Source: Eledone cirrhosa
Taxonomy: Eukaryota
Length of the DNA: 64,000 nt
Assembly (NCBI GenBank): GCA_964016885.1
Contig: OZ024740.1
Coordinates: 220,596,001-220,660,000, forward strand
Direction of reading: 5' to 3'
The position numbers were made by a program, and so were the translations under genes. The notes beneath the pieces are model-generated. The model was given only the letters and a program-made list of their open reading frames with translations. It ran no database searches and had not been told where the DNA came from. Every line of letters starts with the position of its first letter. Within the stretch, counting starts at the first letter, position 1. Of this stretch, positions 6,913-33,174 are shown piece after piece.

Positions 6913-7649
6913 ATGCGTTCCAGTTACCGAATTCATCCTAGAGATGATATGGACAGACCCCTTGATTCCAGAATGATACAATCTACTTATAATATGTCAG
7001 AAAGTAAATATTTAGAAAAAGAGCGACCTAAACCATTATTTCAAAGGGATCACATGAAAGAAAAGTATACGTATCCTGTTAAATATCCACCAATGACAGT
7101 TAAAATCGTCAGGGACCCTGCTGAAGTGAGCTCCAACCTAGAAAAGGTATCTTTGAAAGTAGCTCTGAGAAAGATACAGAATTACTTATGTGATAAAGAA
7201 TTTACATTCAATACAGCCATTATGTGTCTTGATCAATCACTTCATGTTACACATTGCCCTTTCTTCTTGGATTACAGTGTGAGAAAAGGCTACGTTAAAG
7301 AGGGTGTCCTGAAATTTGGGAATTTAATCATTGGTTATGGAAAATCTCCTGATGAAGAAGAAACTCAAAAGCTGGCATACATTGATGCTTTGAGAGCCTT
7401 AAAATTTAAGTCAGTTGAAGAAATCCTGAATAGAAATGAAATCAATGAACCAACATCACCACCACCAAGAACACCACCACCACTTGCATTACCAGTGAGA
7501 GAAAAAACTTTGTCCGAACTTATTATCATAGAAAAAGATGAGTTTGCAGTAGATCGTTTCAAATATTCAGTTTCTATACTTCACAACAGTGTGTTAGCTA
7601 ATAAGATGCACATAAAGTGGGATTATAATCCTGGACCAACTGGATGCAA
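6913..7649 (+). CDS. NKRF-like: Exon 1 (first visible coding exon) of divergent NKRF-like dsRBD/R3H protein
   Basis: Polypyrimidine tract and AG at 6909-6910, ATG 6913, GT donor at 7650 (phase 2). Encodes one dsRBD-like fold (AIMCLDQS...GNLIIGYGKS...QKLAYIDALRAL) and the start of a second (LIIIE...SVSILHNSVLANKMHIKWDY), resembling NKRF NAIGILNNSASFNKMSIEY. An upstream coding exon cannot be excluded. Confidence 0.8.
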
Positions 7650-9445: not shown

Positions 9446-9572
9446 GGTGAATGTATATATACAAGATAAACGTGTTGGAACTGGAGAAGGAACTGGAAGA
9501 CCGGAAGCTAAGAAAAATGCTGCTTGTGATGCACTTTTCAACTTTTTTTATAAGAATTGTGTCATCCTTCAG
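9446..9572 (+). CDS. NKRF-like: Exon 2 of NKRF-like gene (completes second dsRBD-like fold)
   Basis: AG 9444-9445, GT 9573-9574; phase matches exon 1 (AA+G = Lys); encodes VNVYIQDKRVGTGEGTGRPEAKKNAACDAL, the dsRBD GxG..KxxAxxxAAxxAL pattern. Confidence 0.85.
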
Positions 9573-13393: not shown

Positions 13394-15129
13394 CCCTTCT
13401 GTTAAGATGCGTGGCTTGGTGATTAGAGAGTTGGATTCACAATTATTAGGTTGTAAGTTTGATTCTTGAACCAGGTGATGCATTGTGTCCTTGAGCAAGA
13501 CATCTTACCTTATTTCACGTTACTCAACTATAGAAATGAGTTGTGATGTCACTGGTGCCAAGTTGTATTGGCCTTCACCTTTCTTTTCAACAACATAAGT
13601 GGCATGGAGACGGAAGGCGGATATGCATGGGCGATTTGCCAGGGCTTATACCTTGGGGGGGAACTTTCTAGGTACAAAACCTTTGGTCATTTGTGACTGA
13701 AGGGAGTCTTCTGCAACACTTCTGTTACTAACCACGTCATAACTGGCTCTAGTTCTATGAAACAAAGTCACACATTTTAAAGCCTTTAAAATGTGTGACT
13801 TTGGGTAAATAGTCTTTATATTAAAATGCCCCTACATAAATTTATATAAGAACCATATGCCAAGTTATCTTAGTAATGAAATAATCGTTTTAATAAATCC
13901 ATTAATTGAAATTGTGTATTTCATTAGAAATATGGATAATTCATTGTATATTGAATATTCTGTCTTGATGCATATATGAAAGAACACAATTTTTGGTGTG
14001 TCCCCTGACATGGTTGTTGTGGATATGTATAGCTGAAGTGGACATAATTTTCGAAAAAAAAAAAAACAAATAAAACTTTACATTGGCTAGCAGTAGATGT
14101 TTCCTGGGAATCTTTTAATTGATGAATCTTTATTGGTTTAAGTTCTATTTCTGCCAAGGTCAGCTGCGTCTTTTGGGGTCGGTGGAATCATTTGAATACT
14201 GGATAAGCTGCCATGAGGTACTTGTTCCAGCTCTTTGCATTCTGAGTTCATATTTTGTTGCAGGCTACTTGGCTGGAAGACTTAATCCATCACTGGCTTA
14301 ATGCAACCACCTGGCACCTTGGATGTTTTTAGCAGTACACACTCTGTCCAAAAGCATTTGGACCAAGTCTCTAGTTTGAGATACTTACCCCCCTTCCTCT
14401 TATCAGTTAAAGGCCCCAAGGATCAGTGGTACTACCCTTCCTTTCTTGACTAAACACTAAAAAACAAACAGAAATCAAATAATATATAATTCTTGTATTT
14501 TTCTCCAGTGAAATATTGACTACCATTTCTTAATGAAATCTTTGCTGTGTGTATTAGGTTCAGTATAGGTATACCATATTTCTACATGTCATAAGAAGCA
14601 GTTAAAGGGTTTGGCATCAGGAAGGGTATTCTGTTACAAAATATTACCTGAAAAAGTACCCCATGATGAGCATAAAACTTTTCATGGGATCCGCAAGGCT
14701 ATAGCCTGCTTTAGCAAGGAAAGAAGGCCTTAAAACATTGCATTTCTTAATGAGTGTTTCAAGAAATGCCATATCAACATTTTAGTGCTTTCTTGATACA
14801 GGTATGTCTTTTGTCTTATTTTTTTCCACAAGAATGTATTTAATATTTCAGTTACAGAAATATTGTATAGCTGAGCTCTTGCCAAAACTAAGGCAATTGT
14901 GAATGAGACTATGTAAGTCCTTGAACTCTTGTGTTTTCTTATGTAAAACTCATAAAATTAACTATTCTATCTATAATGTTTAAAATGGTTGGGCAGATCA
15001 TGAAGAAACTGTTATTTATCTTAATTGAAACAGCCACAATATAAAGGAATGATGTGTGTATGTAAGTGTCTACTGATTTGCCTATCCATAGCAACATTCC
15101 TCCACATGTAGTGCTACCCTCTATCACTT

Positions 15130-16185
15130 CCATGTGATGCACTTGTATTTAGAGGGTTTTGAGGCCTCTCCTAAACGTGCAATTGATACTCGACCAGGTG
15201 CAGGTCATCCTTAAGGCAGATGCTCTTATCCTTGGGTCACTGATCTTCCCCCCCAGCCATCCGAATGGCCCTTGCATCCAAGCTTCATCAGCTTGAAATT
15301 CTCACGAACAGACTGCATCTGATTAATGCTCTCTTCCTTTTGAGGAACTGCCTTCACATCCCAAAGATTTTGTATACCTTTCGCAGTGCCCTTTGTTACA
15401 GCAGCCATGCAACATCTGGTTTGATGGCACTTGATAGCAACAAGCCATCTTTATCATTAGATACAATGGCTTTGGTCTTCAGTTCTCGGTTTCATTCACA
15501 TTGGCATATCTTATGTACTGGTTTCCTGTTGTGCCCTTATGAACAAGGTTCTCCACAACAGATCAAAGCCTACTATAATACTTGGGGCAGCTTACTTGGC
15601 CAGAATTCTGTGGATATTGAATTTCCCAGCTGGACAGTGACTTGCCTTTGTATTGGTGTTTCCCTGAAGTTCTGTCTCTGGATCAGTGAGCTAATGCTGT
15701 TGAGGGTCCACGGTCTTTCCTCATTTTCATACTGCGTCAGTGCTGGTCACTTAAGACACACCACTGTCGATGAGTCTGTTAAACATGGTTTAGACATAGC
15801 TGGCTTCTCATTACAGTTTGAACAAGTGTGGTTAGACTGAGTGGACAGCAAAAGACAATCTTCCTGGTCTGCAGTGATAAGCTCCTAATCTGGGATGTGA
15901 CATGCAGTGATTCGTTCTTCTGCAGCAAAGTTGTGAATTCAGCGGGATACTCAGGTTTTGTTGTCTGGCAAGCTGGGTATTGCAAGTTGTTGAAGTATTG
16001 TCTTTCCAATAGCTGGAAACGTCTGGCATCCTGGGCACCCAAACAAAGTTCCTACTTACTGTGATCCGGACAAAGTTGGCCACCTGCAAGAATGAGCCAC
16101 TCAAACTGGACTGGCTGTTTTAGAGGATCTAATCTTTCTTGCTATCCTCCGGGTAATGCCTTAACAATTCTGTCAGCTGTGACAG
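15130..16185 (+). mobile_element. CRE-like non-LTR retrotransposon fragment (RT end plus restriction-like endonuclease), decayed
   Basis: ALFLLRNCL.IPK.LY, HGLS..C.SAG..RH, LIWDVTC.D, LET.G.LG and GNA..IL motifs across frames. Confidence 0.7.
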
Positions 16186-16515
16186 CATCCAGCTGCAGAA
16201 ACCATGCCAAATATGAAATGCATGAGCAAGATGAGGTCTCTTACCCATTTAGTCTCAGACTTCGACAGCCTGTCCAACCCTTACCAGCATGGAAATCAGA
16301 CATAAAATGATGGTGAGAAATCATCACACTAAATTTTCCTTTTGGAGCATGTGGAGAATTGTTTCCATAGATAGTCAACTTGATAGGCACACAAAAAATT
16401 TCTCTAATCAATATTGGAGAAAGTGCCAACCCCCTCCTGAAAAACCTCTTGATTCATGCCTACTTATGTGTGCGTGTATTACATATATATTTTATATATT
16501 TTTTTTATACATCAG

Positions 16516-17508
16516 ATTGCTTCAGATGTTGAAAGTAATATCATGATTCCTTACACGAATGTGATGTATTTTGTTAATGAAGTTAAAAGAAGAAAAATAT
16601 CTTATCCCAAGGATATTCCTGCCCGTAATGGTCCTTTTGCTATTGTAATAGAAAACCTGCTCGACTCCTACACATGGACTGCGGTGAATAACCAACTTGT
16701 ATTTGGCCCTGGGATAGTTGATGACGAGGCTGAAACTCTTAGAATTATTGGTGAGAGAAGAAACTTAATTGTTCGGAAAAAGAAATACAATGATGGCTTT
16801 ATCTACTGTTTACGTAGTGTGAAAGATTTTAGTGAAATCATAAAATATCTTCATGAGAATGGTGGAGCTAGTGGTAGATATCGCCTTGTTCCAAAATCAG
16901 AGATACCTGAGTTAAAAGCTATAAGACAGCAATATTATCAACAATATAGAATGTCTAGTCAAATAAAGGTAGATGAGAATGAAAGGCCAGGTTCTTATGG
17001 AAATATTGGTGATTCCAGCACAAACATGAATCAAGATTCTTATGATTTTCAAGGAGGTTATAACTATTCTGACAATAATAGAGAATATGACTCCAACTTT
17101 GTCAATCCTCCAAATTTTCCCCAGTCAAACATTAATTTGGAAGAACCTCAACAGATTCCAAATGTTGATAATACTCAATACATGAATTCAAATTCTAGTT
17201 ATTACGATAGGAACTATGCTTCAAATCCTTATGAAAGAGAAACAAATGTTCATAATCAGATGAACTCTGATGTAAATATGAATCGTAATGAAGGACCAAT
17301 GTATTCTTATAATCAAAGACCTGCACTAGGGGAAGAAGATAGATATAATTCTATGAATAACCAAGGTAATTCTTATCCGGCACAAAGTGGTTTTAATCAG
17401 AGGTCTTATGATTCAGATTATAACCCAACAGGAGACACAAATACTTATTCGGGATATTACGGAAACAATTTTGATTCAACAACTGGTAACAATAATGAAG
17501 GTTTTTCT

Positions 17509-17539
<31 letters not shown>

Positions 17540-18792
17540 GCAATAATAATAATAGAGCTTCGTGTTCTACTGGGTCTTATGAGAATTATCATTCAAGAGC
17601 TGTTTATGAATATGATAATGTTCATAAAACTGACTTTAATTCGTCGTCAATGTATAATTCTCGTGATACCACTGCTGCACCAAAAGAGCAAACTGGTTAT
17701 AATCAGGATTATTGTGCAAGAAACCCAGTTCAGAATTATGGCCAGGAATATCCCTATTCAACTGGTCAACACAACACACCTTATATGTATGAACAAGGAA
17801 ATCAAATGAACAAAAGAGAAGAAATGTTTGATAATAGAAATTCTCATCCAATGTCTGGAAGAGAATTCAACGACAACTCTGGCTTTCAAAATAAACTGAT
17901 GGGACAAAACCAACGTCCTGATTCATCTTTTAACCAAATTGGTAATCAAAATAGTAGTAGTTTTAAGGTAAAAAGGCCCGGTTTAGGACGTATGTTTGGT
18001 AATGCCAAAGCAAAAGCTTACGAAAAAGAATTGAAAATCAGAAAAGTTGCAATAAATATTGGTAACAATAGATCTAGAGGGAAATCTTCAAAACGTTGGA
18101 CAACATCAACTAATAGCAAAGTCTCTGGAAATGCATCTACATCTGCAGCACAATATCGCAGCATGCGAAGTTTGGCAGCCAAAGTAAATGCTAGAGCTTC
18201 ATCAAAGAATTTGACCCCTCTTATGAGTATGGAACAAACAACAAACAACAACCAAGTAATGCTTCTAAAATTGCTTACCAAGAAAATTGCTCAGAGAGCT
18301 TTACAAAGCAATGTCAAAAACATAATTGCAAATGCAACACGGTTATCGAATATTGCTAAGTCACGTCAACTAATGGAACGGTCTACAGCTCAGCTGCTTT
18401 CTGTTCCTAAGAAAAGAACCAGAAGGTCAAAACGCAAACCTGATGTAGCTAAAACTCCAAACAGTGGAACAGCCAAGCAAACTCCAAGAAGCGGTACAGC
18501 TAAGCAAACTCCAAGAAGCGGTACAGCCCAACAAACTCCAAGAAGCGGTACAGCCCAGCAAACTCCAAGAAGCGGTACAGCCAAGCAAACTCCCAAAAGC
18601 GGTACAGCCAAGCAAACTCCCAAAAACGGAACAGCCAAGCAAACTCCAAAAACTGGTACAGCCAAGCAAACTCCAAAAATTGGTATAGCCAAACAAACTC
18701 CAAAAAGCGGAACAGTCAAGCAAACTCCAAACACAACAAAAAACACAAAAGTCAAGGGAGCATATTTACCCCTACAAAAATTGAAGAAATAA
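16516..18792 (+). CDS. NKRF-like: Terminal exon A of NKRF-like gene: R3H-like domain, N/Y-rich low-complexity region, basic tail with TP repeats
   Basis: AG 16514-16515, phase 0 matching exon 2; 758-aa open frame; IENLLDSY..LVFGPGI.DDE..L..IG and IIKYLHENGGASGRYRLVP resemble the NKRF R3H domain and C-terminus. Confidence 0.8.
18454..18729 (+). repeat. Coding 27-bp minisatellite, 10 units encoding TP(R/K)SGTA(K/Q)Q
   Basis: Direct reading: actccaagaagcggtacagccaagcaa and variants, in frame in exon A. Confidence 0.97.
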
Positions 18793-18831
18793 TTTAATTC
18801 CTCTTTCAAATGTTCCTGTATTCAATATTTC

Positions 18832-18837
18832 AATAAA
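18832..18837 (+). terminator. Candidate polyadenylation signal AATAAA of terminal exon A
   Basis: AATAAA about 40 nt after the stop, T-rich downstream, conserved in copy B. Confidence 0.6.
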
Positions 18838-19226
18838 TGTTCATGTCTTAAAAAGTATCTCATTTTTGTCAACTTCTTAACACTTCGAACCTGCTGGCCC
18901 AGTACTCAGTTCTGCTGCACACTTCTGTTAATTAGTTGACACCACTTTCTGCATGAGTCAGTGACCATAATACATCATTTCTTTAGACTGTGTTCTTAGG
19001 AATACATTGTCGTGATGTTTTTCAAGTTTCTACATTTATCCTTGTTACAATTGAATTATCAAATAGCAGTTTATGTTGATTTTCGTGTGGACAGCCAGTG
19101 TTGAGGACTGCAAACACAGCAAGGAGTCTGGGTTTAAGGGGTTTAAGTTTATTGTTTGGCTGTTCTATTTTCCTTTACAAGGGAGAAACTGATACTGCAA
19201 TATTTTTACTCTCTCCTCACAGTAAA

Positions 19227-19264
<38 letters not shown>

Positions 19265-19275
19265 AATTATTTTTC

Positions 19276-21555
19276 TTTGCCCACTTATTCCAGAGTGGAT
19301 TGTGGGGGCTGTATCATCAAAGTCTCCTTCCAGCAGGTACTGTCAGAAACAACTGATCTGGCTGGATTCCCAGGCAAGACAAGCTGCATTAATGGATGTT
19401 ATCCAACCATCTTGCTCGGGATCCACCACTGGGTCTCTTGCTGGTTGATTCTTTCCTGATACATTCTAAGCACATGCCCATAGTATCTCTCAATTCAGAG
19501 AAGTAGCGGCACTATCCGGAGCGGTTCTAATCTCCAAGCTATGCACTCTATTGAGTAACGTTACTCCAAAGACCCTTCGGAGGAACCCCGTTTCGGTCGC
19601 TTATATTCGCGATCGTATTCTTTCAGTCATTACCCAATTGAAGAAAGCGAGTTTGGCTTTTTCATCTACCTCCCTTCTTCTGATCACCAAATGCTGAAGC
19701 TGGTGCATTACTGCACCAGCTGCTGCAATTCTTGCACTTAATTCAGCCTCCTGCCTTCCGTCACTTGTGATATTTGAATTTCTCCACCTGCTTCACAGGA
19801 ACTCCATTCACATGTAGATGCTGTTGTGATTGAGTTTAGGAGATAAGCAAAGTATTTCCTCCACCTGGGAGGATGCACCTCTCTGAAGAGAGGAGACCCC
19901 AATTCCTGATGGCAGGTTTGGAGGAGGACTTATTACAAAGTCGGCGGATTATCTGCCAGAACATTTTATTTGCTTAATCCCAAAGTTCTCCCATGTGTTA
20001 ACTTTGGATGCCTTTACTGTCTCTGCTGCAATTCTTCGTGTCTGCCTGTACCACAAGTGCTAGGAGACTTATTTTCAAGCCAAGTTTTGTGGGCTTCCTT
20101 CTTTGTTTGGATGGCATCTTTGACCTCTTGATTGAACTAAGGGGTACTCCTGCCATCTGGAGCCACACCAAGCCTCTTTCGCTCACAGCATTTAATAGCT
20201 GAAGCAGAAACTGAACAATATTCTCAGTTTGCTCAGGGAGTTCTCTGAATTTGGATGCAATAGTATCTGCATACCTGGTCCTGACTTCCTTATCCACCAA
20301 AGCTTCCCTCTTTATCCAATAGTCTGCCCTGGACCTGCCAGATTTGTGGGTTTCTTTGTGGGCTGTGGGCTTTAGGTGGTCTCAAGTTACAGATAACTAG
20401 ATGGTGATCAGTTGACAGCTCAGCCCCTCTCTTAACATGAACATTCAGCACAGAATCGAAGAGATCAGAGACAATAACCAAATCAATTATTGATTTCTGT
20501 CCCTGATTCCCCTTATACCATATATATTTATGGATGTCTCTGTGCTCTGTCCATAATAGAGTCCATTGCTAGAAGAGAAGTCTAATAAGGCCCCTCCATT
20601 CATATTTTGATTGGGATTGCCATTCCTTCCAATAACTCTTTTCCATGTCATTTAGTCGGTGTCAACATGTGCATTGAAGTCTCCCATTAAGATATATGAC
20701 TCTGTCTTAACTACATCTAACGCTGCAATGACTTCATCCTCCACTCATTACTGCTCCTTACCTGTAAGGATTGTGGTGTTCCAAGTTTCAATTGTTATAG
20801 TTTTCTCCTTCCGAACCCTCTTTGTGCATCCATCCCATGCCTTCTGGGACATGTTGCAGGCCCTTCCCCAGTTTTTACTGCATGAAATGGAGATAGCAAT
20901 ATATTTTTTAAACAGGCTCTTCTAATCTAAGGCCTGAACATAACCCTTGTTAACCTGCGTGAAAGACAATGTGGTATGGTTCTTTTTTGTTCCTCTCACT
21001 ATATTGCAATTTTGGTGGTCTTATTTTGAACCAGTCACTAATCTGGTACTTTCTCAAACCCATGAAGTCTAGGCTATTTTAGAGGCGGCCTTTACTTGCC
21101 TCATAACTACATCACTGGGTTGTGAGAACTTTCTTGAAAGCTACAGATGTCACCCATTGTTCCATCTCCCCAAATAGTTTTACTGCTATTGGTTCGGGAT
21201 TGCTTATTCATCCAGCAGCTGCCTCGTTATATTGCGAGTAACCATTATATCTGGTGGCCGTATCGCTATCCGCCACCTGCAACCCGTTTTCTAGCAGAAC
21301 AGCTTGCAGGTTTGAGATAGTACCAGATTGGTTACTGGTGCGAATAAGACCACCAAAACTGCAATATGGTGAGAGGTAAGAAAAAGTACCATACTGCATC
21401 GTCCTTCACACAGGTTTTACAAGGGACACATTAGGTAGAAGGGCCTGTTCGAAAAATATTGCACTCTCCATTTCATGACGTAAAAACTGGTGAAGGACCT
21501 GCGACCTGTCTTGGGAGGCATGGGATAGATGCACCAAGATTGCATATCCTGAGAA
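19276..21555 (-). mobile_element. RTE LINE (family 2), internally deleted, with 5' region and 12-bp TSD
   Basis: APE motif VKRGAELSTDHHLV; TAATTATTTTTC repeated at 19264-19275 and 21556-21567; the site is empty in duplication copy B (about 33175-33190). Confidence 0.88.
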
Positions 21556-22574
21556 TAATTATTTTTCAATATTTAATTTCATTTCAAATTCAGCATTTAA
21601 TGCCTCTATATTTGCAGAGAGACAAAATCTGGCCTTAAAGTGAAGTTAATAAACACTAAAGACCTAGTAAATGGAAAAGATGGCAGGATTCCGTCAGAAA
21701 AATGGCCGTGCTTAATATGTAAAAAAGGAGCGGGTAAAAATTCCATATAGTGTACAAAATGTAAGCTATGGATACACGAGATATAGAAGAATCTCTGGGA
21801 GGTTAGCAAATAATGTAGACTTTGTATGTGGCCGAGCTTACATAAAACTGGTTCTATCAAAGGTTCAGATAGTTCCGTAGAAATGTGTTGACAATATACA
21901 ACCAGAAGCAACTAACTTTCTTCAAGACTGCCTTCAGACTCAACACTTCCTCTCTTACAGTGGGATGACCCCCACACTGTCCCTGACAAGCAGCATGTAG
22001 ATAGTCCTCTCTTATCTTGCAGCTCACTCCCATCACTGCCTAGCCAATGACACAATGAGCACCCTAGTGTTGGAATGAGGTAGTGCCATGATAAAAAGCA
22101 CCCAGTCCACTCTGTAAAGTGGTAGTGCTGGTGCCACTATGAAAAGCATTCAGTACGTGCTATAAAGTGTTTGGTGTTTGGGAAGGACATCCAGCTATAG
22201 AGATTAAGCAAAAAACAGAACCTACATGTAAGACATGGTTACCTGACTAGTCTAGCCCTATTAGGTAACAACCCGTCTAATCCATGGAAGGATGGGAAAT
22301 AGACATTAAATGTGAAGGTGTATGGCTTAGTGATTAGGGTGTTTGGCTTATTAGCATAAAGTTGTGAATTTAGGCCCCAAATTGAACGATGCATTTTGTC
22401 CTTGAGTGGGATGCTTTACTTCCCATTGTTCCAGTCCAGCCAGATGGCAAAAACGAGTTTTACCTGGAACAAATACTATGAAGCATTTGAGGATCTGAGT
22501 CTTTTCATTTGCTGCCCCTGTGTGTGTGTGTTTGTGTGTGATATCGTTTAAGGTAATCCATGTTCTTTACTCTT

Positions 22575-22910
22575 TTCATTTTTCATTTTACGTCCGCTTT
22601 TTCCCTGCTTGCAAGGGTGGGACGGGAACTGATTCTGGCTTGATTTCTACAGCTGGATGCCCTTCCTAAACACCAACCTCATTTACAGTGAGTGCTGGGT
22701 GCTTTTTTGCCGTGGCACCTCCACGACCACTTTGCAGTGGAATGATAGGGACCGCAGTCCCTATCATCTCATTTCTACAGCTGAGTAAACTGGAGCAATG
22801 TGAAATAAAGTGTCTTGCTCAAGGAAACAACACATCACCCAGTCTGAGAATTGAACTCACAACCTTTCGATTGCAAGGCCAATGCTCTAACCACTAAGCC
22901 ATGTGCCTCC
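22575..22910 (-). mobile_element. tRNA-headed SINE with RTE-derived tail
   Basis: Head with A box TGGCTTAGTGG and B box GAGTTCAATTC, CORE-like ccttgagcaagacacttt, tail matching the RTE 3' UTR at about 62470-62630; near-identical inverted copy at 49979-50313. Confidence 0.85.
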
Positions 22911-22970
22911 ATTTTTTCACTATATATATATATTTTATGGAAAAGTGGACATAAAAATGATGATATATAT

Positions 22971-23009
<39 letters not shown>

Positions 23010-25337
23010 ATTGTATATTGAACAATATACAGGTTATTTATGAAAAACGTCCCATATATTATTCAATATACAATGCGTACATATATGTCTATAATGCTAT
23101 GTTGGAGCACCAATATACATTTTATGTGTGTGTATTAATGCATGTATTATGCAATGTGTTTCTGCTTGGTTGTCTTTCAAGTCCTCCACAAGCCATTGGT
23201 CAATGATAAACTAAGGACTTTTGCTCATGGCAATACAATAGAATTGAACCTAGAAACATGACTGTAGAAGGATTTCTTAACAACACAGCCATGTTTGCAT
23301 TTGTGTATAGTATTTTATTTTCACAATTTGTTTGTTAGCTGTTGAGGGCAGTGGCTATAGATATAGTTGCTGTTTAATTCAAACATCTATAGGTCCATGT
23401 GCAGGAAAAATTTGGTTGGGGAATTAAAAGAATTGTGAATATTATTTGAGCTTTTTTTAGAGGGCCTGTAACTGATGAGGGCTAAAGTTTTTTTTATATC
23501 CAGTTTTTAGAAGAGGTATACCATATTCCTGCATGTCATAAGAGGTACTTAAATGGGTTGGCACCAGGAAGGATATGCAGCTGAAAAACAATGTCTCAAA
23601 CCATCTTGTCATAACTCACGCCAGCATGAAAAAGTGGACATAAATACAACAATGATGACGAAGAAAGAGGAATGTTAGATTTTAAGATGTAATTTTTGCC
23701 ATATCATGAATTAGAGATTGCCAAGAAGGATCATGAGGAGAGAAATTTCAGTTGATTGTTGATATGTCTTAGATTAGTGTAGATTTTGCTGGCTTTCTAT
23801 GAAGTTGCATCTCAATAGGTTTCTTGTGTGTTTGAACGACAGGGACCCCCATCCCTATCAGATCAGTTTTTTTTTTACTCCCAATAAACTCTGAATGCAC
23901 TCAGCTGGAACAGATATCACTTTAACAATTCCGCCAATCCACCCTTCTGGACTGGTACGTTATTTATTCGCCCTGCAAAGTTGACTCCAGTGTAATTTGA
24001 GTTTGGAGTTAAGAGAGCAGGAACAAATACCACAAGGCATTTAATTTGATGCTCTAATGGATCAGCCAGATCATTACCTTAAAAGAAGGGGATGGTTTGT
24101 GTGATAGGTCAGTTGTTGGTAGAGTCAGGGAGAGAAGTAGCCCATCTTTGGCTTGTTCATGTATGTAATCATGAGACTTGTGGAATGGAAGAAATATTTT
24201 GGAGCTATCTTGTTTTGTGTGTATATTGTAGAGTTGGAAACAAAACAGTAAATATGGAAGTCTTCTCCACAGGAGTACTGCTTATTGAACCATCTTGATT
24301 AAGGAGTGGATGGTTAGGAGAGGTGGAATCTGTAAAGTTGGTACAGATCTTGGCAGGGAACTAGAAGTGTTGGCGGCAATTTGCGAGTCAGTAGGACTTA
24401 CTGTGTAATATGCAAAGACATCTTGGGTTGCGGCAGTTAAAAAAGTTGCCTAGTTTGTGGAAGATGAGGGTGTTTTGCTTTTGTTGTAGTACAGCTGCAT
24501 ATATTATCCAAGTGTCTTAATCTCTAGTTGGCATTTAACCCTTTTTATCCCTATGTCTCATCATCATCATCATCAGCATTATTTAAAGTCTGTTTTCTCT
24601 GCTCTCTTCCATCATAATTTTCTGTAAGACCTTTTTTTAAATTAGGTTCCAAACATTTAATAATAAGAAAGCTAGTTATATTACTAAATTCCTTCAAGTT
24701 TTTTTTTCATTATTTTCACAATTAATTGAAATATAGGCAGTGTATTTCATTAGAAAGATGGCAACAAAAGGGATAATGAAAGAAGACATACAAAATATTT
24801 TAGATAGATGTCCTGCAACTCTAACCCTTTTGTTAACCATATTTCTAATGAAAAACAGTGCCTATGATTTTCAAATAATTTCTGAAATAATCTAGAATTG
24901 AGTGGGATTTATAACTGACTTTCTCATTATTAAGCTGGTGTTTGAAGCATAACTTAACAAAAGTTCTTATATAAATTTATGATGGAACGTTTTCAGTTAA
25001 ATATAAACACTTTAAAACAAACAGTTTTGTATTTTAGAAGCTGAGGCAGTTTCAGGTGGGTTGGTATTAAAACAACTTAAAAATAAGTACTGATACTGTA
25101 CAGCAATATACAAATGATAAAGTTGTCTCTGCAAACCAGATATGATAACTGAATAAAGTATTTGTAAAAAAATGTACTGTTTTGTTAAATATCTTATTCA
25201 TGAAATGCTAACTTTGTGTTAAAATATATATTTGCTTAATTCTACATAGAAGTTGTAATATGAATGAATGATAAAAAGATTTTACCAGTTTATCTTTAGT
25301 GATTTATTAGAAATTACCATTACCAGTACCTGTGCTG

Positions 25338-25712
25338 GTGACACAAGAAAAAGAGTACCCAGTCCACCCTGTAAGGTGGTCATGTTGGTGATACAACAAA
25401 AAGTGGCCAGTTCACCATATAAGGTGGTTGTGCCAGTGACACAACAAAAAGCACCTAGACCACTCTGTAAGGTGGTTGTGCTGATGACACGACAAAAAGC
25501 ACCCAGTCCACTCTGTAAGGCAATCACGTTTGTGACAACAAAAAGCAGCCAGTGCACCATATAAGGTGGTCGTGTTGGTGACAACAAAAAGCACCCAGTC
25601 TACCTTGTAAGGTGATCGTGCTGGTGACAACAAAAAGTGCACAGTCCACCCTGTAAGGTGATCATACTGGTGACAAAATAAAAAAAATCACCCAGTCCAC
25701 TCTGTAATGTGG
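25338..25712 (+). repeat. About 47-bp minisatellite (about 8 units) in an RTE-type 3' UTR
   Basis: Unit like gtgacaacaaaaagcacccagtccaccctgtaaggtggtcgtgttg, followed by the conserved tail ggttggtgttaggaagggcatccag and (GAT)n. Confidence 0.9.
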
Positions 25713-27109
25713 TTGGTGTTAGGAAGGGCATCCAGCCGTAGAAACCAAGCCAAAATATATGTCCATATGAGCAAGACGTCACCTAACCTGACGTGTCTCA
25801 TATTGTGACAATCCGTCTAACCCATGCAGATGTGGAAAAATTGACATTAAACGATGATGATGATGATGATGTGGAAATTCAACTATTGTTTTGAAAACTA
25901 TATGGTTGTTTGAAGTATATAGAGAACCATGAAATATATAAATTCTTTTGAAATTGTATTTTTACTAAAGCATTTGATTCTTGTGTAAGATACATCATGT
26001 CTAGTTGTACCTGTGGAAATTCCGCTATTATTTTGAAGTTTTTAAAGAACCATGAAATACATAATTTCTTTCCCTCTTTGTATATTCAAGGTGCAGTCTT
26101 AGGAAAGGTCATTGAAAACTATATACTTTGTTATATATCAGCTTATCCATAATTCTTACTATTTATTTGCCATCTTACTCACTATTCTTCCTACCATCGT
26201 ACCTATCATATGATTTTAGCTACCACCCACAGTCATATTCACCATCTTTCACAGAATGTACACCCCATCCTATCTCTTTACTTGCCACTCTACTCAGTAT
26301 AAATCCTTCTTCAACCCATAATTTTTAATTCTTCAACCAGTTCAGTTCTCTCTCTCTCTTTCCAACTTTTATGTGACAACTGGACCAATTAAGCATATAA
26401 TACAATTATTATATGCATTATTACATATGTTCATTTAATATCCTTAACTGTTGCTGATTTTTTTCTTTTCATTACTGAATGGTCTTCTTGCAAAATTTAT
26501 CTTTTGTGAATCATCAGATGAAAGATTTTAAACTATTTTGTACTATATGAAACTGCATTATCAAAGATATTCTTGAAAAAGTGTAAAACCGAACTAGGCC
26601 TGCATTACATGAAAAATGAAAGGTCTTACTCTAATTTTACAAATTTTCTCCAGTAGTAAAGATACTACAAACATTTGAATTAAACCTATTTTTAGATATT
26701 TTCTTCTAAATTTTTTAAATTGTGATTATAATTTTGAAAATGTATACCAAATATACATGTTTATTACAGGATGTTAAGAATTAACAAATGGTTGAATTTC
26801 TATTTAATTACAATATCAATAGATGAATGTTTAAGATATGTTGTATTTAATGTTGCAGTATAAATTTATTGAAAAGAAAAAGTGGAAATTTTATCAATAT
26901 TATCTAATTCTTATAAATTTATTTTAAATTAGGCTTTAGATAAACAATCCTTTCAATACACTTTTAAAAGTCTTGATAGGATAGCAATAGTATTTTAACA
27001 AATATTCTTTTTAATTCTTTGAGTGCCTAAAATACCTCTTTGACTTCTTACTTCTTGAGTGCCAAAGATCTACTGGTACATTATTATTTAGTTTGTGAAG
27101 CTCAAAGCC

Positions 27110-27965
27110 AAGCTCTGTAAGCATCTGATATACATGAGGTGTATCTAGGGGCGAAAATTAACCTCACAGAGGCTGGTACCAGAACAATTAAAGTGTTCAA
27201 ATGTGGCAAAGTCTCTGGTGAGGATGAAATTCATCTCGACATATTAAAACTCGTGAATTGAGAATATATGTTGTGGCTGTTTCATGTATGCCAGGTGGTC
27301 TGGATCTCTGGAAGGGCGCCAAGGCAATGGCAATTGGGAGTAATTATCCCAATTTTTAAAAGTGGAAACAAGAGATTCCTCTAATTATAGAAGAATCTCT
27401 TTGTCAAACCTCCTCCATAAAGTTTATGCTAAATGTCTTTCACCACTAACATAGCATAGCTGACCAAATATTCACTCTGCGGTAGGTCTTGGAAATATTG
27501 TCAAGCAGTATATGCTTGTTTTGTGGACATTGAAAAAACATACACCTACATGCCACAGGATTCGTTGTGGAAGGTTCTGCAGGAGTATGGGATAGATGGA
27601 CAGCTTCTCATTGCCTTGAAGTTCTTGTATGAATGCCTAGTATTTGCATTCGATAAATGGTTCTACATCAAAGCCATTCAATGTGGATACCTGCCAAGGT
27701 ACCCACTTCTGTTCATAATCTTTATGAATAGGATTGACATGTGCAACCAGACTTGTGGTGATATTAAAACCAGTAGGTGTAAGATCAGTCAACTGGCTTC
27801 TTTAGATGATGTGGTGCTATTGAACTTGTCAGATGATCTCCAACATGCACTGGATAGGTTTGTTGCATGACGAATGAAAATCAGTGGTGCGAAGGCCGAG
27901 ATATTCATCTTCTTGGGAATGCCTGTGCAGTGCACCTTGCATGTGAGTGGAGTTCAAGTATTTTA
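27110..27965 (+). mobile_element. RTE family 2 RT fragment
   Basis: FVDIEK.Y, LWKVLQEYGIDGQLL, PLLFIIFM, LAS.DD motifs with stops. Confidence 0.8.
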
Positions 27966-28729
27966 GCGGGAAGGCTTAATCCATCACTTGGTTTAACGCA
28001 ACCACCTGGCATTCGGATGTTTTTAGGAGAACACACATTGTTAAAATGCATTTGGACCAAGTTTCTAGTTTGAGGATACTTGCTTCCCTTCTTGACTAAA
28101 CACTAAAAAACAAACAGAAATCAAATAATATATAATTCCTGTACTTTTCTCCATTTAAATATTGACTACCATTTCTTAATGTCATGTCAAAAGAGGCAGC
28201 TAAAGAATTTGGTGCCAGAAAGGGCATTCTGCTGTAAAATAGCTGAAAAAGTACCCCATGATAAGCATGAAACTTTTCATGGGGTCCGCAAGGCTAAAGC
28301 TTGCTTTAGCAAGGAAAGAAGGCCTTAAAACATTGCATTTCTTAATGAGTGTCTCAAGAAATGTCATATCAACATTTTAGTGCATTCTTGATACAGGTAT
28401 GTTTTTTGTCTTATTTTTCTCCACAAGAATGTATTTGATATTTCAGTTACAGAAATACAGCTGAGCTCTTGCCAAAACTAAGGCAATTGGGAATGCTGTG
28501 TTTTCTTATGTAAGACTCATAAAATTAACTATTCTATCTATAATGTTTAAAATGGTTGGGCAGATCTTGAAGAAACTGTTATTTATCTTAATTGAAACAG
28601 CCACAATATATAGGAATGATGTGTGTATGTAAGTGTCTACTGATTTGCCTATCCATAGCAACATTCCTCCACATGTAGTGCTACCCTCTATCACTTCCAT
28701 GTGATGCACTTGTATTTAGAGGGTTTTGA

Positions 28730-29790
28730 GGCCTCTCCTAAACGTGCAATTGATACTGAACCAGGTGCAGGTCATCCTGAAGGCAGATGCTCTTATCCTT
28801 GTGTCACTGATCTTCCATCCGAATGGCCCTTGCATCCAAGCTTCATCAGCTTAAAACTCATGAACAGACTGCATCTGATTAATGCTCTCTTCCTTTTGAG
28901 GAACTGCCTCGCCATCCCAAAGTTTTTGTATACCTTTCACAGTGCCCTTTGTTACAGCAGCCATACACCTTGCCTCATTGATCTTGATATTTGCAACCAG
29001 TGTGGTGCAGAGGAAATATGCACATCTGGTTTGATGGCACTTGATAGCAACAAGCCATCTTTATCATTAGATACAATGGCTTTGGTCTTCAGTTCTCGGT
29101 TTCATTCACATTGGCATATCTTATGTCACTGGTTGTGCCCTTATGAACAAGGTTTTCCACAACACATCAGAGCCTACTATAATACTTGGGGCAGCTTACT
29201 TGGCCAGAATTCTGTGGATGTTGAATTTCCCAGCTGGAGAGTGACTTGCCTTTGTATTGGTGTTTCCCTGAAGTTCTGTCTCTGGATCAGTGAGCTAATA
29301 CTGTTGAGGGTCCATGGTCTTTCCTCATTTTCATACTGCGTCAGTGCTGGTCACTTATGACACACCACTGTCGATGAGTCTGTTAAACATGGTTTAGACA
29401 TAGCTGGCTTCTCATTACAGTTTGAACAAGTGTGGTTAGACTGAGTGGACAGCAAAAGACAATCTTCCTGGTCTGCAGTGATAAGCCCCTAATCTGGGAT
29501 GTGACATGCAGTGATTCGTTCTTCTGCAGCAAAGTTGTGAATTCAGTGGGAGACTCAGGTTTTGTTGTCTGGCAAGCTGGGTATTGCAAGTTGTTGAAGT
29601 ATCGTCTTTCCAATGGCTGGAAACTTCTGGCATCCTGGGCACCCAAACAAAGTTCCTACTTACTGTGATCAGGACAGTTGGCCACCTGCAAGAATGAGCC
29701 ACACAAACTGGACTGGCTGTTTTAGTGGATCTAATCTTTCTTGCTATCCTCCAGGTAATGCCTTTACAATTCTGTCTGCTGTGACTATGT
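28730..29790 (+). mobile_element. CRE-like non-LTR fragment, duplicate of 15130-16185
   Basis: Near-identical to the copy A fragment. Confidence 0.7.
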
Positions 29791-30457
29791 GGTAACAGCC
29801 TGTGGTTTTGCACTTTCAAGAGATAGAATGAGCAAACAAATGAGTATAACATCCTTTCATTGGTTGTTTTGTGCTGTTACCATTAGTCACTATATACATT
29901 CATACATACACTTGACAAACACAGGGTTATTAACTGTAACATGTTTATTAAAGTATAAACAACTCAATGTTACTGATGTTATATATCTTGTATTGAGTAA
30001 GATAAATAAAGCTGTATTGTTTGCCACACACAATAAAATGTACTTGGTACACTCTCTAAAGTGTTAGTGCTTGTGGCATAATAAAATACATCCAGAACAC
30101 TCTGTAAGGTTGTTGGCATTAAGAAGGGCATCCAACTACAGAAACCATGCCAAATATGGAATGTATGAGCAAGATGAGGTCTCTTACTCATTTAGTCTCA
30201 GACTTCGACAGCCTGTCCAATCCTTACCAGCATGGAAATCAGACATAAAATGATGGTGAGAAATCATCACACTAAATTTTCCTTTTGGAGCATGTGGAGA
30301 ATTGTTTCCATAGATAGTCAACTTGATAGGCACACAAAAAATTTCTCTAATCAATATTGGAGAAAGTGCCATCCCCCTCCTGAAAAACCTCTTGATTCAT
30401 GCCTACTTATGTGTGCGTGTATTATATATATATTTTATATATTTTTTTATACATCAG

Positions 30458-31864
30458 ATTGCTTCAGAAGTTGCAAGTGATATCATGATTCCTTACTCGA
30501 ATGTGATGTATCTTGTTGATGAAGTTAAAAGAAGAAAATTATCTTATCCGAAGGATGTTCCTGCTGGTAACGGTCCTTTTGTTACTGTAATAGAAAACTT
30601 GCTTGACAACTACTCATGGAGTGCTGTGAATAACGAACTTGTATTTGGGCCTGGAATAACTGTTGATCAGGCTGCAATCCTTAGAGTTATTGGTGAGAAG
30701 AGATACTTAGTTCTTCGGAAAAAGAAATACAAAAATGGATTTGTCTACTGTTTACGTACTGGTGAAATTTTTAGTGACATCGTAAAATATCTTCAAGAGA
30801 ATGGTGGAGCTAGTGGTAAATATCGCCTTGTTCCAAAATCAGAGGTACTTGAATTAAATGTTATGGAACAGAAATTATTTCAGGAGAATATCCAATTTTC
30901 TGGCCGTATAAAGGCAGATGTGAATGAAAGGCCAAGTTATGGAAATATTGGTGATTCTAGCACTAACAGGAATCAAGATTCTTATGAATTTCAAGGTTAC
31001 AACTATTCTGACAATAATAGAGAATATGACTCCAACTTTGTCAATCCTCCAAATTTTCCCAAGTCAAACATTAATTTGCAAGAACCTCAACAGATTCCAA
31101 ATGTTGATAATACTCAATACAAGAATTCAAATTCTAGTTATTACGATAGGAACTATGCTTCAAATCCTTATGAAAGAGAAACAAATGTTCGTAATCAGAT
31201 GAGCTCTGATGTAAATATGAATCGTAATGAAGGACCAATGTATTCTTATAATCAAAGACCTGCACTAGGTGAAGAAGGTAGATATAATTCTATGAATAAC
31301 CAAGGTAATTCTTATCCGGCACAAAGTGGTTTTAATCAGAGGTCTTATGATTCAGATTATAACCCAAAAGGAGACACAAATACTTATTCGGGGCATTACA
31401 GAAACAATTTTGATTCAACAACTGGTAAAAATATGGAAGGTTTTTCTCATAATAATAATAATAACAATAATAATAATAATAGAGCTTCGTGTTCTACTGG
31501 GTCTTATGAGAATTATCATTCAAGAGCTGTTTATGAATATGATAATGTTCATAAAACTGACTTTAATTCGTCGTCAATGTATAATTCTCGTGATACCACT
31601 GCTGCACCAAAAGAGCAAACTGGTTATAATCAGGATTATTGTGCAAGAAACCCAGTTCAGAATTATGGCCAGGAATATCCCTATTCAACTGGTCAACACA
31701 ACACACCTTATATGTATGAACAAGGAAATCAAATGAACAAAAGAGAAGAAATGTTTGATAATAGAAATTCTCATCCAATGTCTGGAAGAGAATTCAACGA
31801 CAACCCTGTCTTTCAAAATAAACTGATGGGACAAAACCAACGTCCTAATACATATTTTAACTAA
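30458..31864 (+). CDS. NKRF-like: Duplicated terminal exon B (candidate alternative last exon or partial paralog), 468 aa, truncated before the basic tail
   Basis: Same phase-0 acceptor context (AG 30456-30457); open frame with only in-frame indels versus exon A until a CAA>TAA stop at 31862-31864. Confidence 0.6.
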   Translation: MASEVASDIMIPYSNVMYLVDEVKRRKLSYPKDVPAGNGPFVTVIENLLDNYSWSAVNNELVFGPGITVDQAAILRVIGEKRYLVLRKKKYKNGFVYCLRTGEIFSDIVKYLQENGGASGKYRLVPKSEVLELNVMEQKLFQENIQFSGRIKADVNERPSYGNIGDSSTNRNQDSYEFQGYNYSDNNREYDSNFVNPPNFPKSNINLQEPQQIPNVDNTQYKNSNSSYYDRNYASNPYERETNVRNQMSSDVNMNRNEGPMYSYNQRPALGEEGRYNSMNNQGNSYPAQSGFNQRSYDSDYNPKGDTNTYSGHYRNNFDSTTGKNMEGFSHNNNNNNNNNNRASCSTGSYENYHSRAVYEYDNVHKTDFNSSSMYNSRDTTAAPKEQTGYNQDYCARNPVQNYGQEYPYSTGQHNTPYMYEQGNQMNKREEMFDNRNSHPMSGREFNDNPVFQNKLMGQNQRPNTYFN

Positions 31865-32480
31865 ATTGATAATAAAAATGTTAGTAGTAGTTTTAAGGTA
31901 AAAATACCTGATTTAGTACATATGTTTCGTAATGCCAAAAACAAGGAAAGCTTATGAAAAGGAATTGAAAATCAGAAACACTGCAATAAATATTGGTAAC
32001 AATAGATCTAGAGGGAAAACTTCTTTAAAAGTTGGACACCATCAACACTCTCTGGAAATGCATCTACATCTGCAGCACAATATCGCAGCATGCGAAGTTG
32101 ACAGCCAAAGTAAACGTTGGAGCTTCATCAAAGAATTTGACGCCTCTTATGAGTATCGATCAAGCAACAAACAACAACAAAGTAATGCTTCTAAACTTGC
32201 TTACCAAGAACATTGCTCAGAGAGCTTTACAAAGCAATGTCAAAAACATAATTGCAAATGCAACACAGTTATCGAATATTGCTAAGTCACGTCAACTAAT
32301 GGAATGGTTAACAGCTCAGCTGCTTTCTGTTCCTAGGAAAGGAACCAGAAGGTCAAAACACATCAGAAGTAGCTAAAACTGAAAAAGCTCCAAACAATGG
32401 AACAGCCAAGCAAATTCCAAACAACAAAAAACACCAAAATCTAGGGAGCAAATTTACTCCTACAAAAATTGAAGAAATAA
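31865..32480 (+). pseudogene. Decayed remnant of the basic C-terminal coding region of exon B
   Basis: Aligns by eye to 17938-18792 but with several frameshifts; holds only about one unit of the 27-bp repeat (about 32388-32422). Confidence 0.85.
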
Positions 32481-32519
32481 TTTAATTCCTCTTTCAAATG
32501 TTCCTGTATTCAATATTTC

Positions 32520-32525
32520 AATAAA
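32520..32525 (+). terminator. Candidate polyadenylation signal AATAAA of exon B
   Basis: Same context as 18832-18837. Confidence 0.5.
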
Positions 32526-32937
32526 TGTTCATGTCTTAAAAAGTATCTCATTTTTGTCAACTTCTTAACACTTCGAACCTGCTGGCCCAGTACTCAGTTC
32601 TGCTGCACACTTCTGTTAATAAGTTGACACCACTTTCTGCATGAGTCAGTGACCATAATACATCATTTCTTTAGACTGTGTTCCTCAGGAATACATTGTC
32701 GTGATGTTTTTCAAGTTTCTACATTTATCTTTGTTACAATTGAATTACGAAATACCATTTTATGTTGAGATTCTCGTGTGGACAGCCAGTGTTGAGGACT
32801 GCAAACATGGCAAGGATCTGGGTTTAAGGGGTTATAAGTTCATTGTTTGGCTGTTCTATTTTCCTTTACAAAGGAGAGAACTGATACAGCAATATTTTTT
32901 ACTCTCTTCTCACAGTAAACTAATATATATATATATA

Positions 32938-33126
32938 TAATAGGAAAAAGTATGACCTCGACGGCAGAGCTCAAGCCGTTTCAACGGGTAGTCCAGAAAT
33001 AGCCGTTGAAACGGCTTGAGCTCTGCCGTCGGGGTCATACTTTTTCCTATTACCCACTCTACTACCCTAAGTATTGAGTACTCTGATGTGTTATGGTCCA
33101 TCTGGTTCCTTACCACAACTCCTTCG

Positions 33127-33130
<4 letters not shown>
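32938..33130. repeat. Fold-back insertion with 50-bp inverted arms in a (TA)n tract
   Basis: Arms 32938-32987 and 33003-33052 with one mismatch; absent from duplication copy A. Confidence 0.85.

Positions 33131-33174
<44 letters not shown>

Follow-up and report, generated by a model that had tools for sequence, protein, structure and literature searches.

Duplication of a terminal exon in an Eledone cirrhosa gene with dsRBD-like regions: probable gene conversion around a diverged block with a predicted R3H-like fold

Introduction

How does a coding block come to differ more between two copies of an exon than the intron directly beside it? The question is raised by a stretch of Eledone cirrhosa DNA (NCBI GenBank assembly GCA_964016885.1, contig OZ024740.1, positions 220,596,001 to 220,660,000 of the forward strand), hereafter the window, whose 64,000 nucleotides (nt) include a three-exon gene with regions resembling a double-stranded RNA-binding domain (dsRBD) and two same-strand copies, A and B, of its terminal exon. 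Over the first part of this exon (16516-16896), which encodes a domain with a predicted R3H-like fold, 52 of 381 sites differ between the copies (13.6%), compared with 9 of 331 in the adjacent intron (2.7%; 16184-16515; Fisher p 7e-8) and 23 of 892 in the low-complexity coding region (2.6%; 16996-17902; Fisher p 4e-13). Divergence reaches 27% in the linker (26 of 96 sites; 16897-16995) and falls to 1.0% in the 3' untranslated region (UTR; 2 of 205 sites; 18796-19000). Identity between A and B is therefore a mosaic far beyond chance. The explanation toward which we lean, by a modest degree, is an old terminal-exon duplication that was patched by gene conversion, with the predicted R3H-like block left unconverted and both versions in use.

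Extent of the duplication

Comparison of the window with itself revealed one collinear, same-strand duplication. Copy A (14300-19239, + strand) and copy B (27995-32932, + strand), delimited by self-BLAST and MAFFT, each consist of the terminal exon, preceded by about 2.2 kb of intron 2 and followed by the 3' UTR. The two copies are 13.9 kb apart, with B downstream. Self-comparison and tblastn both show a single copy of exons 1 and 2 in the window, and matches to the domain occur at only two places in the whole 3.0-Gb genome; the duplicated unit is thus the terminal exon with its 3' UTR and about 2.2 kb of the intron before it.

In copy A, the coding part of the terminal exon (16516-18792, + strand) is an open frame of 758 codons plus TAA that starts in phase 0. 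Its modules are, in order, the predicted R3H-like domain, the linker, an N/Y-rich low-complexity region, a conserved C-terminal motif, and TPxxGTAKQ repeats; joined to exons 1 and 2, it gives an isoform of 1046 amino acids. In each copy the long open frame sits 3' of a polypyrimidine tract and CAG, and the acceptor of B equals that of A except that its T-run is one T shorter (seven rather than eight).

Beyond 14300-19280 the regions around A and B fail to align (32-47% identity). A preliminary description of this DNA, made from the letters alone, had reported clearly diverged outer flanks on both sides. The left one survives as the duplicated edge at 14300-14710 (11.9% divergence); on the right, 21576-21895 matches 33193-33495 at 83% but is not collinear with the duplication and is repeat-like. 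This pair and a second one (19818-20574 and 35710-36523, 79%) were dropped as flanks and, because they are not collinear, are read as dispersed repeat copies.

Mosaic identity between the copies

Divergence along the A/B alignment is not uniform: penalised change-point analysis recovered five segments, as compared with a single segment in 100 of 100 permutations. This result is for a penalty of 1.5 ln n; at 3 ln n, no internal segment was recovered. The five segments are the edge (14300-14710, 11.9%), the intron (14711-16568, 3.4%, 61 of 1810 sites), the diverged block (16569-17031, 16.7%, 77 of 460 sites), the low-complexity region (17032-17876, 2.2%, 18 of 830 sites), and a remainder (17877-19239, 8.1%) that contains the 3' UTR tract at 18796-19000. 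A maximum-likelihood fit with two change points places the block in A at 16527-17027 (+ strand; about 17% divergence; twice the log-likelihood difference, 117), for which the matching interval in B is approximately 30469-30969. The left edge of the block is supported over 16513-16623, a range that includes the exon start at 16516, and the right edge over 16970-17072.

Three low-divergence tracts, all on the + strand, accompany the block. The first (14711-16526, about 3%) runs from the intron through the splice acceptor and holds identical runs of 150, 146, and 128 nt; the second (17032-17876, 2.2%) covers the low-complexity coding region; the third (18796-19000, 1%) lies in the 3' UTR and includes AATAAA at 18832-18837. 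The second tract also holds the longest identical run of the alignment, 339 nt (A 17527-17877, B 31466-31804), a length that none of 5000 permutations reached (longest 186 nt; p 2e-4). Identity between the copies is significantly mosaic, with long near-identical tracts beside diverged blocks.

Much of this had been anticipated in the preliminary description. Its manual count for the start of the exon—about 36 residue differences and about 10 purely synonymous codons in about 127 codons—is exact in the codon alignment (36 and 10 over codons 1-127, read from 16516 in A and from 30458 in B). Its claims that the domain is more diverged than both the adjacent intron and the low-complexity region, and that the upstream intron and the 3' UTR are nearly identical, agree with the values given above, and the tract that it took to be identical (17555-17875 against 31480-31800) is real and extends slightly further than proposed.

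Two length differences lie within the low-divergence tracts. An (AAT)n run encoding poly-Asn (17503-17556 in A, 31439-31487 in B) differs by 12 nt inside a near-identical tract. Additionally, the low-divergence intron tract is interrupted midway by a stretch of 341 nt found in B alone (29785-30128), which may have been inserted after the last conversion or may mark the boundary between two tracts.

Near-identical sequences could also arise in assembly or polishing, if the reads of one copy were used to correct the other. Although nothing points directly to such an error, runs of 128-339 identical bases separated by 13.9 kb are where errors of this type arise. Contigs from four sequencing runs of one study (X1-X4), aligned with 14000-33500, bear on this possibility. 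Three of the runs, X2-X4, behave as DNA, and their contigs (16452-17091, and 30395-31030, the latter of 636 nt with 60 masked letters before 30455) give both versions of the domain with no other letters (16452-17091 and 30455-31030). Contigs of X2 further reproduce the stop codon, the indels, and the deletion junction of B. No other letters are listed inside the tracts, which is not proof of sameness; however, scattered differences of 2-3% persist within the low-divergence tracts, unlike what a collapse would leave. The runs share one study, possibly that of the assembly itself, and so are not fully independent of it. Taken together, these data make an artefactual origin of the tracts highly improbable.

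Age of the diverged block

The excess divergence of the block extends to synonymous sites. Codons 1-127 contain 13 synonymous differences on approximately 83 sites, compared with 6 on approximately 170 sites downstream (Fisher p 0.0014); for codons 1-160 against the downstream codons, the corresponding test on synonymous counts gives p 4e-5. Synonymous divergence (dS) is 0.18 over codons 1-127 and 0.22 over codons 1-160, as opposed to 0.036 over the remaining 303 codons. Silent-site divergence in the block is therefore about five times that of the downstream coding sequence (dS 0.036), and it also exceeds the divergence of the flanking intron (2.7%). Because synonymous divergence is raised to this degree as well, the block seems to be older than its surroundings, rather than a product of protein-level acceleration alone. 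An old duplication is further favoured because the non-coding edge at 14300-14710 (11.9%) and the stretch after the stop codon of B are diverged as well (8-12%). On the simplest reading of these values, the duplication would be at least 0.12-0.2 substitutions per site old and would later have been overwritten by at least three conversion tracts. An old duplication patched by gene conversion, as the preliminary description had already proposed, finds backing in both the contrast in dS (0.18 vs. 0.036) and the diverged non-coding edges, and we consider it very probable.

The opposite chronology would have the duplication be recent, at the level of 2-3%, with the block diverging afterwards under positive selection or in a mutational hot spot. 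Most of the duplicated segment is indeed diverged by only 2-3%, the block begins, as far as the resolution allows, where the exon does, and derived amino acids are in excess in the domain of A (rough omega 1.3; see below). Selection on the protein would nevertheless leave the roughly fivefold synonymous divergence of the block unexplained, and the non-coding stretches at the edge and after the stop codon of B, diverged by 8-12%, are likewise inconsistent with a recent origin. No hint of a mutational hot spot arose, although no search was aimed at one. A recent duplication is accordingly an improbable source of the pattern.

Reading frame and decay of copy B

Several properties of B go beyond the preliminary description: it is a copy of the terminal exon only, it has a stop codon at 31862-31864, and it is frameshifted thereafter, with the C-terminal motif lost. 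The open part of terminal exon B (30458-31864, + strand) comprises 468 codons and is closed by TAA at 31862-31864; the corresponding codon of A is CAA (17935-17937). The decayed remainder (31865-32480, + strand) is homologous to the C-terminal 285 codons of A but out of frame; it carries frame-shifting indels of +4, +2, -1, -236, and -2, plus two in-frame indels. If B is used, this remainder would act as 3' UTR. It is followed by the AATAAA of B (32520-32525, + strand), within a run of 162 nt identical to A.

The open part of B presents a different picture. Upstream of the stop codon, none of the four indels shifts the frame, as compared with 18 of the 25 in the intron, post-stop, and UTR sequence (Fisher p 0.014). 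At the non-coding rate of 18 frameshifts per 184 substitutions, the 77 substitutions of the unconverted block would predict 7.5 frameshifts; none is observed (Poisson p 5e-4). Because frame-shifting indels are absent there, the first 468 codons of B have been kept open through the independent history of the block. Splicing of B to exon 2 would produce an isoform of 756 amino acids with its own version of the domain and without the conserved C-terminal module. A stop codon situated in the last exon is not expected to trigger nonsense-mediated decay.

The end of exon A (18452-18731) consists of about ten tandem 27-nt units encoding TP(R/K)SGTAKQ. Copy B lacks 236 nt of these units (at 32362), and the Octopus and Argonauta proteins have from none to about six. 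Because B and the outgroup proteins carry fewer units, the array has either expanded in A or is unstable.

Probable transcription of the copies

Contigs of run X1 (88 Mb of contigs) differ in their borders from those of the DNA-like runs. The DNA-like contigs begin 30 nt to the left of the first intronic A/B difference, as expected of genomic unitigs at k = 31. In X1, both the A contig (595 nt) and the B contig (592 nt) begin 19 nt before the exon start; 16 letters precede 16513 and 30455, respectively, and are followed by CAG, the three aligned letters before the exon start, which are common to the end of the intron and the end of exon 2. The first exonic A/B difference is at nt 12 of the exon. 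A k = 31 graph must branch at this distance if the preceding sequence is shared, and so the starts of the X1 contigs fit the same upstream exon for A and B. The 636-nt DNA-like contig with 60 unaligned letters before 30455 was considered as a spliced form and dropped, as its length equals that of 30395-31030, an expected genomic unitig.

B-specific contigs of X1 cover, with no other letters, 30455-31030, 31817-32011 (including the TAA), 32070-32241 (including the 1-nt deletion), and 32275-32488 (including the junction of the 236-nt deletion); the first two intervals are covered by X1 and X2 contigs alike, again with no other letters. Contig depth in X1 is 80-253 on the exon and 10 on an intron contig, as compared with a flat 13-30 in X2, although depth of this type cannot rank parts of the gene, which counts against its use here. 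As regards an alternative 3'-terminal exon, the acceptor of B is intact and agrees in phase with that of A, and each copy has a poly(A) signal of its own (AATAAA at 18832 in A and at 32520 in B). We infer from these data that run X1 derives from RNA, and that transcripts of B exist in which it is joined to exon 2 and serves as a distal, alternative last exon. It is likely that B serves as an expressed, frame-preserved alternative exon.

Other X1 contigs, at a depth of 5-8, lie between exons A and B (23201-24181, 26996-28118, and 29641-30153). These would fit read-through past the poly(A) site of A; repeats or DNA carry-over would be an alternative source.

Polarity of the amino acid changes

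Four outgroup proteins, 47-57% identical, were used to polarise the amino acid differences between the copies: those of O. vulgaris and O. bimaculoides, an Octopus-like Logan record (P0003), and that of Argonauta. Within the domain (codons 1-127), 19 differences are derived in A, 6 are derived in B, and 11 are ambiguous. The direction is reversed in the remainder of the exon: 1 A-derived, 7 B-derived, and 9 ambiguous in the linker (codons 128-160; 0, 7, and 10 when polarised by protein alignment instead); 3, 8, and 8 in the low-complexity region; and 5, 11, and 14 in the post-stop part, for which B was read in the frame of A with X at gaps. Changes outside the domain sum to 9 derived in A and 26 derived in B. 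The asymmetry of the domain has a binomial p of 0.015, and its heterogeneity with the rest of the exon a Fisher p of 1.9e-4. Derived changes in the domain of A are mostly conservative (mean BLOSUM62 score +0.8), compared with a mean of -0.7 for the six in B.

The 26 derived changes in B against 9 in A outside the domain are as expected if B is the less constrained copy. A constrained parent accompanied by a dead copy does not fit these data, because the polarity within the domain is the reverse. Instead, comparison with the outgroup sequences suggests that B preserves the ancestral domain, and that the domain of A changes at about the neutral rate or faster.

Selection or chance

Under the combined explanation, which we put slightly ahead of even, the 3'-terminal exon of an octopod gene with dsRBD-like regions would have been duplicated with 2.2 kb of its intron on the same strand, the copies now lying 13.9 kb apart. 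Later gene conversion would have homogenised three tracts: one in the intron up to and including the acceptor, one in the low-complexity region, and one in the 3' UTR that includes the poly(A) signal. With both versions of the domain translated, conversions that overwrote the block would have been selected against, and the intron, low-complexity region, and 3' UTR would have been freely homogenised. Selection as the cause of the unconverted block had been put forward in the preliminary description, as an expectation for two distinct RNA-binding variants. The preserved frame of B, the larger share of ancestral residues in its domain, and the X1 contigs speak in favour of that proposal; the dN/dS ratio and the unconverted blocks in non-coding sequence speak against it, and we judge this component to fall a little short of an even prospect.

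A number of observations weigh against the combined explanation. The pairwise ratio of non-synonymous to synonymous divergence (dN/dS) is 0.81 in the domain (0.72 in the rest), and the 52 differences in the domain are spread 22/14/16 over the three codon positions, with no third-position excess; taken as a whole, the domain therefore shows no sign of purifying selection. The non-coding parts of B contain unconverted blocks too (post-stop, 8.4%; edge, 11.9%), and with only about three tracts, a chance placement is hard to exclude. B is without the motif NQxMLLKxLTKKIAQxALQxNVKNIxANA, which is common to A and all four outgroup proteins, and given this loss B could be on its way to becoming a pseudo-exon. 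A run search with the domain of B returned four runs, none of which is recorded as RNA. The 16 letters upstream of 30455 and of 16513 lie within masked repeat (30408-30454 and 16479-16512), so that the junction between exon 2 and B comes from contig offsets. Under a stricter outgroup rule, by which the Argonauta residue had to recur in one or more of the three Octopus-type sequences, the asymmetry of the domain is 13 against 5 (p 0.096). The rough lineage values of omega for the domain (1.3 for A and 0.4 for B) assume that synonymous changes are split equally between the copies; these changes are unpolarised, the outgroups being proteins only.

Several of these observations would also be expected if B were a dead partial duplicate, with conversion tracts placed by chance and the block merely uncovered in recent time. 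The premature stop codon, the five frame-shifting indels in the last third of B, and the lost C-terminal motif are typical of what such a pseudo-exon would accumulate; the dN/dS of 0.81 without third-position excess, the equally unconverted non-coding blocks, and the lack of any run recorded as RNA among those found are consistent with it as well. The unconverted block, however, contains none of the 7.5 frameshifts expected, and the domain of B has fewer derived residues than that of A (6 vs. 19)—the opposite of what a neutral copy would display, and of the 26 against 9 seen elsewhere in the exon. The RNA-like run X1 also yields contigs specific to B whose borders are exon-like, and these are similarly at odds with a dead copy. 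On balance, we consider it unlikely that B is simply a pseudo-exon.

A variant of the combined explanation would have the work of the last exon split between the copies, by complementary sub- or neofunctionalisation of modules at alternative last exons that is held against ongoing conversion. The distal B would keep the ancestral R3H-like domain and shed the C-terminal module; the proximal A would keep the C-terminal module, and its domain would diverge at or above the neutral rate, possibly adaptively. We offer this division tentatively, as a possible but rather doubtful outcome.

Comparison with known systems

Greater divergence in a coding block than in its own intron is a recognised mark of duplicates between which sequence is exchanged while something resists homogenisation, as in the opsins (PMC3213168; PMC3924837). 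The gibbon L/M opsin study describes greater divergence in exons than in introns and GENECONV tracts that are mostly intronic, with exon and intron trees that date the duplication differently; purifying selection against homogenisation is the explanation given there (PMC3213168). A review describes how, in duplicates that undergo conversion, a "peak of divergence" marks the sites under selection (PMC3924837). The locus resembles the primate L/M opsins in that same-strand tandem paralogs have introns more alike than a coding block, conversion lies mostly outside that block, and synonymous divergence in the block exceeds intron divergence. It differs in that one terminal exon rather than a gene is duplicated, one copy is truncated, and the intact copy is the more derived. 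Islands of divergence that persist under gene conversion are also reported for the GOT1 paralogs of Tigriopus californicus (PMC3728101); the likeness is a divergence island within homogenised duplicates that is read as a possible target of selection, although the Tigriopus duplicates are whole-gene paralogs.

Gene conversion between duplicated, alternatively spliced exons is reported for Dscam and for the sodium channels of Taricha newts (PMC3236188; bioRxiv 10.1101/2021.03.25.437018). There, as here, an exon and its acceptor are duplicated within one transcription unit and conversion occurs between the copies. Those exons, however, are internal, mutually exclusive, and of equal length, whereas the Eledone copies would be alternative last exons with their own poly(A) signals, the use of B being inferred.

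The locus belongs to the known, opsin-type "peak of divergence" pattern, of which it is a clean but ordinary example. Its particular features are that the unit is a terminal exon, that the second copy is truncated, and that the intact copy holds most of the derived domain residues. The locus thereby adds a compact invertebrate case with a single terminal exon as the unit, and the polarity is unexpected in that, within the domain, it is the intact copy A that changed. If the junction between exon 2 and B is true, the interplay of exon duplication, alternative last-exon use, and gene conversion becomes testable within one transcription unit. The octopod lineage is noted for its RNA biology.

Predicted structure of the domain

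The core of the predicted R3H-like fold (16615-16824, + strand; exon residues 34-103) has the order strand-helix-strand-strand. An AlphaFold2 model built from a 9-sequence alignment has a mean pLDDT of 73.6 and a pTM of 0.62, with pLDDT values of 77-91 over residues 41-100; beyond the core, it has one more strand and two helices on the N-terminal side (residues 9-51) and a further helix at the C-terminal end. Among 48,161 chains compared by VIA-align, which does not depend on Foldseek, R3H domains account for five of the six best matches (7zw0 chain sh, in its R3H part, 2cpm, 1whr, 1ug8, and 2lrr), with 64-79 residues aligned over model residues 25-114 and Z-scores of 6.2-6.8, which lie in the common range for this comparison, where a best Z of 7-8 is typical even for models without a clear relative. 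The matched region of 7zw0 chain sh is one that we take to be an R3H domain. Below the R3H domains rank two-layer folds of the TusA/SirA, Smr, and Alba types. Foldseek found no match in the PDB at E <= 0.001; the R3H domain of Smubp-2 (1msz) is in fourth place, with E 0.11, a probability of 0.97, and a target TM-score of 0.67 over 62 columns.

Sequence comparison does not extend this resemblance to the family. The Pfam R3H model (PF01424) has no match at E <= 1 in A, B, P0003, P0004, or P0006. Across Pfam, A and P0003 have no matches, and B has only a sub-threshold p25-alpha match inside the low-complexity region. The R3H signature is Arg-x-x-x-His in the first helix. In the corresponding helix here (residues 69-81), neither copy has a His, nor does any of the four outgroup proteins, and the R-x-x-x-H signature is absent. 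The domain thus resembles R3H domains, such as those of Smubp-2, SPAG7, PARN, and yeast Fap1, in its predicted strand-helix-strand-strand arrangement at residues 34-103, and differs from them in lacking both the Pfam match and the Arg-x-x-x-His motif and in having extra N-terminal elements and a C-terminal helix. "R3H-like", the term used in the preliminary description, is a fair description of the predicted fold, but not of family membership. With its dsRBD-like regions and this predicted fold, the gene product is a candidate RNA-binding protein.

Gene model and orthologs

The splice sites of the two upstream exons were read from the sequence. Exon 1 (6913-7649, + strand) begins with ATG at 6913 and ends at the donor AA/gtaaga (intron from 7650); exon 2 (9446-9572, 127 nt, + strand) lies between the acceptor ttttcag/G and the donor CAG/gtaata. 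In tblastn searches of the window, residues 1-235 of the Argonauta ortholog P0004 match 6913-7626 (52.5% identity, E 9e-67), and residues 241-285 match exon 2 (from 9438; E 1e-11). Exon 1 encodes the N-terminal part of the protein, which, from its sequence pattern, we read as including a first dsRBD-like region. Exon 2 encodes the C-terminal half of a dsRBD-like region, its final residues being VILQ, and exon A is collinear over its full length with the Octopus and Argonauta proteins.

A HMMER search with the two-sequence domain alignment against 1.84 billion representative proteins returned four matches at E <= 0.001. These include P0004 (907 amino acids), an Argonauta hians protein that its source lists as uncharacterised; P0003 (722 amino acids); and a weak relative, P0006 (185 amino acids, E 7e-4). 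The fourth, P0005 (E 6.5e-6), was rejected as spurious: it is a bacterial-type repeat protein of 2667 amino acids that matches through a short "KLVFGAGI"-type stretch in eight places. A profile search added a cluster of six proteins of 996-1074 amino acids from Octopus vulgaris, O. sinensis, and O. bimaculoides, and UniRef names the Octopus orthologs "DRBM domain-containing protein". Pfam dsrm matches residues 241-273 of P0004, in the part homologous to exon 2, with E 0.0011 and 20 bits, below the cut-off of 23. The exon 1 frame of the window has no Pfam match at E <= 0.1, and Pfam searches of intron open frames gave nothing usable. A profile search of PDB sequences found a single, weak match, to the dsRBD of RNase III (E 0.089). 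A literature search for the ortholog identifiers LOC115217295, LOC106878930, XP_014783779, and A0A0L8G6B2 found no mention of them. As far as its sequence and those of its relatives indicate, this is a three-exon, uncharacterised gene that occurs in octopods, with weak relatives in ENA records.

The latter are six proteins (P0006-P0011, 125-187 amino acids) in which the FGPG...GKYxLVPK core of the domain recurs, at 21-22% identity (E 7e-4). Three of them (P0006, P0008, and P0009, 185-187 amino acids) start with "ILQIS", which resembles the junction of exons 2 and 3. From these sequences, it seems that the domain exists outside octopods. Word-indexed homolog searches scored none of 291 candidates for residues 1-160 of exon A, and none of 170 for the two-sequence domain alignment among proteins of 88-280 amino acids. 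In the ESM Atlas, the best score for residues 1-150 was 0.80, below the level counted as more than a lead.

Other features of the window

Outside the gene, the window holds three reverse-transcriptase-like open frames of one retroelement family (482-1762, 46973-47977, and 62960-63988, all on the - strand); identity is 93% over 1.35 kb between the first two and about 76% for the third. A string of same-strand open frames of 145-286 amino acids at 57431-61697 (+ strand) is probably a decayed mobile element; of the two frames scanned with Pfam, 57431-57952 has a sub-threshold STPR match only and 58002-58862 has no match. A short element at 22463-23113 has a second, inverted copy (22581-22906 against 50303-49980, 97% identity) and reaches a contig depth of 10^5-10^6 in all four runs, which marks it as a very high-copy repeat.

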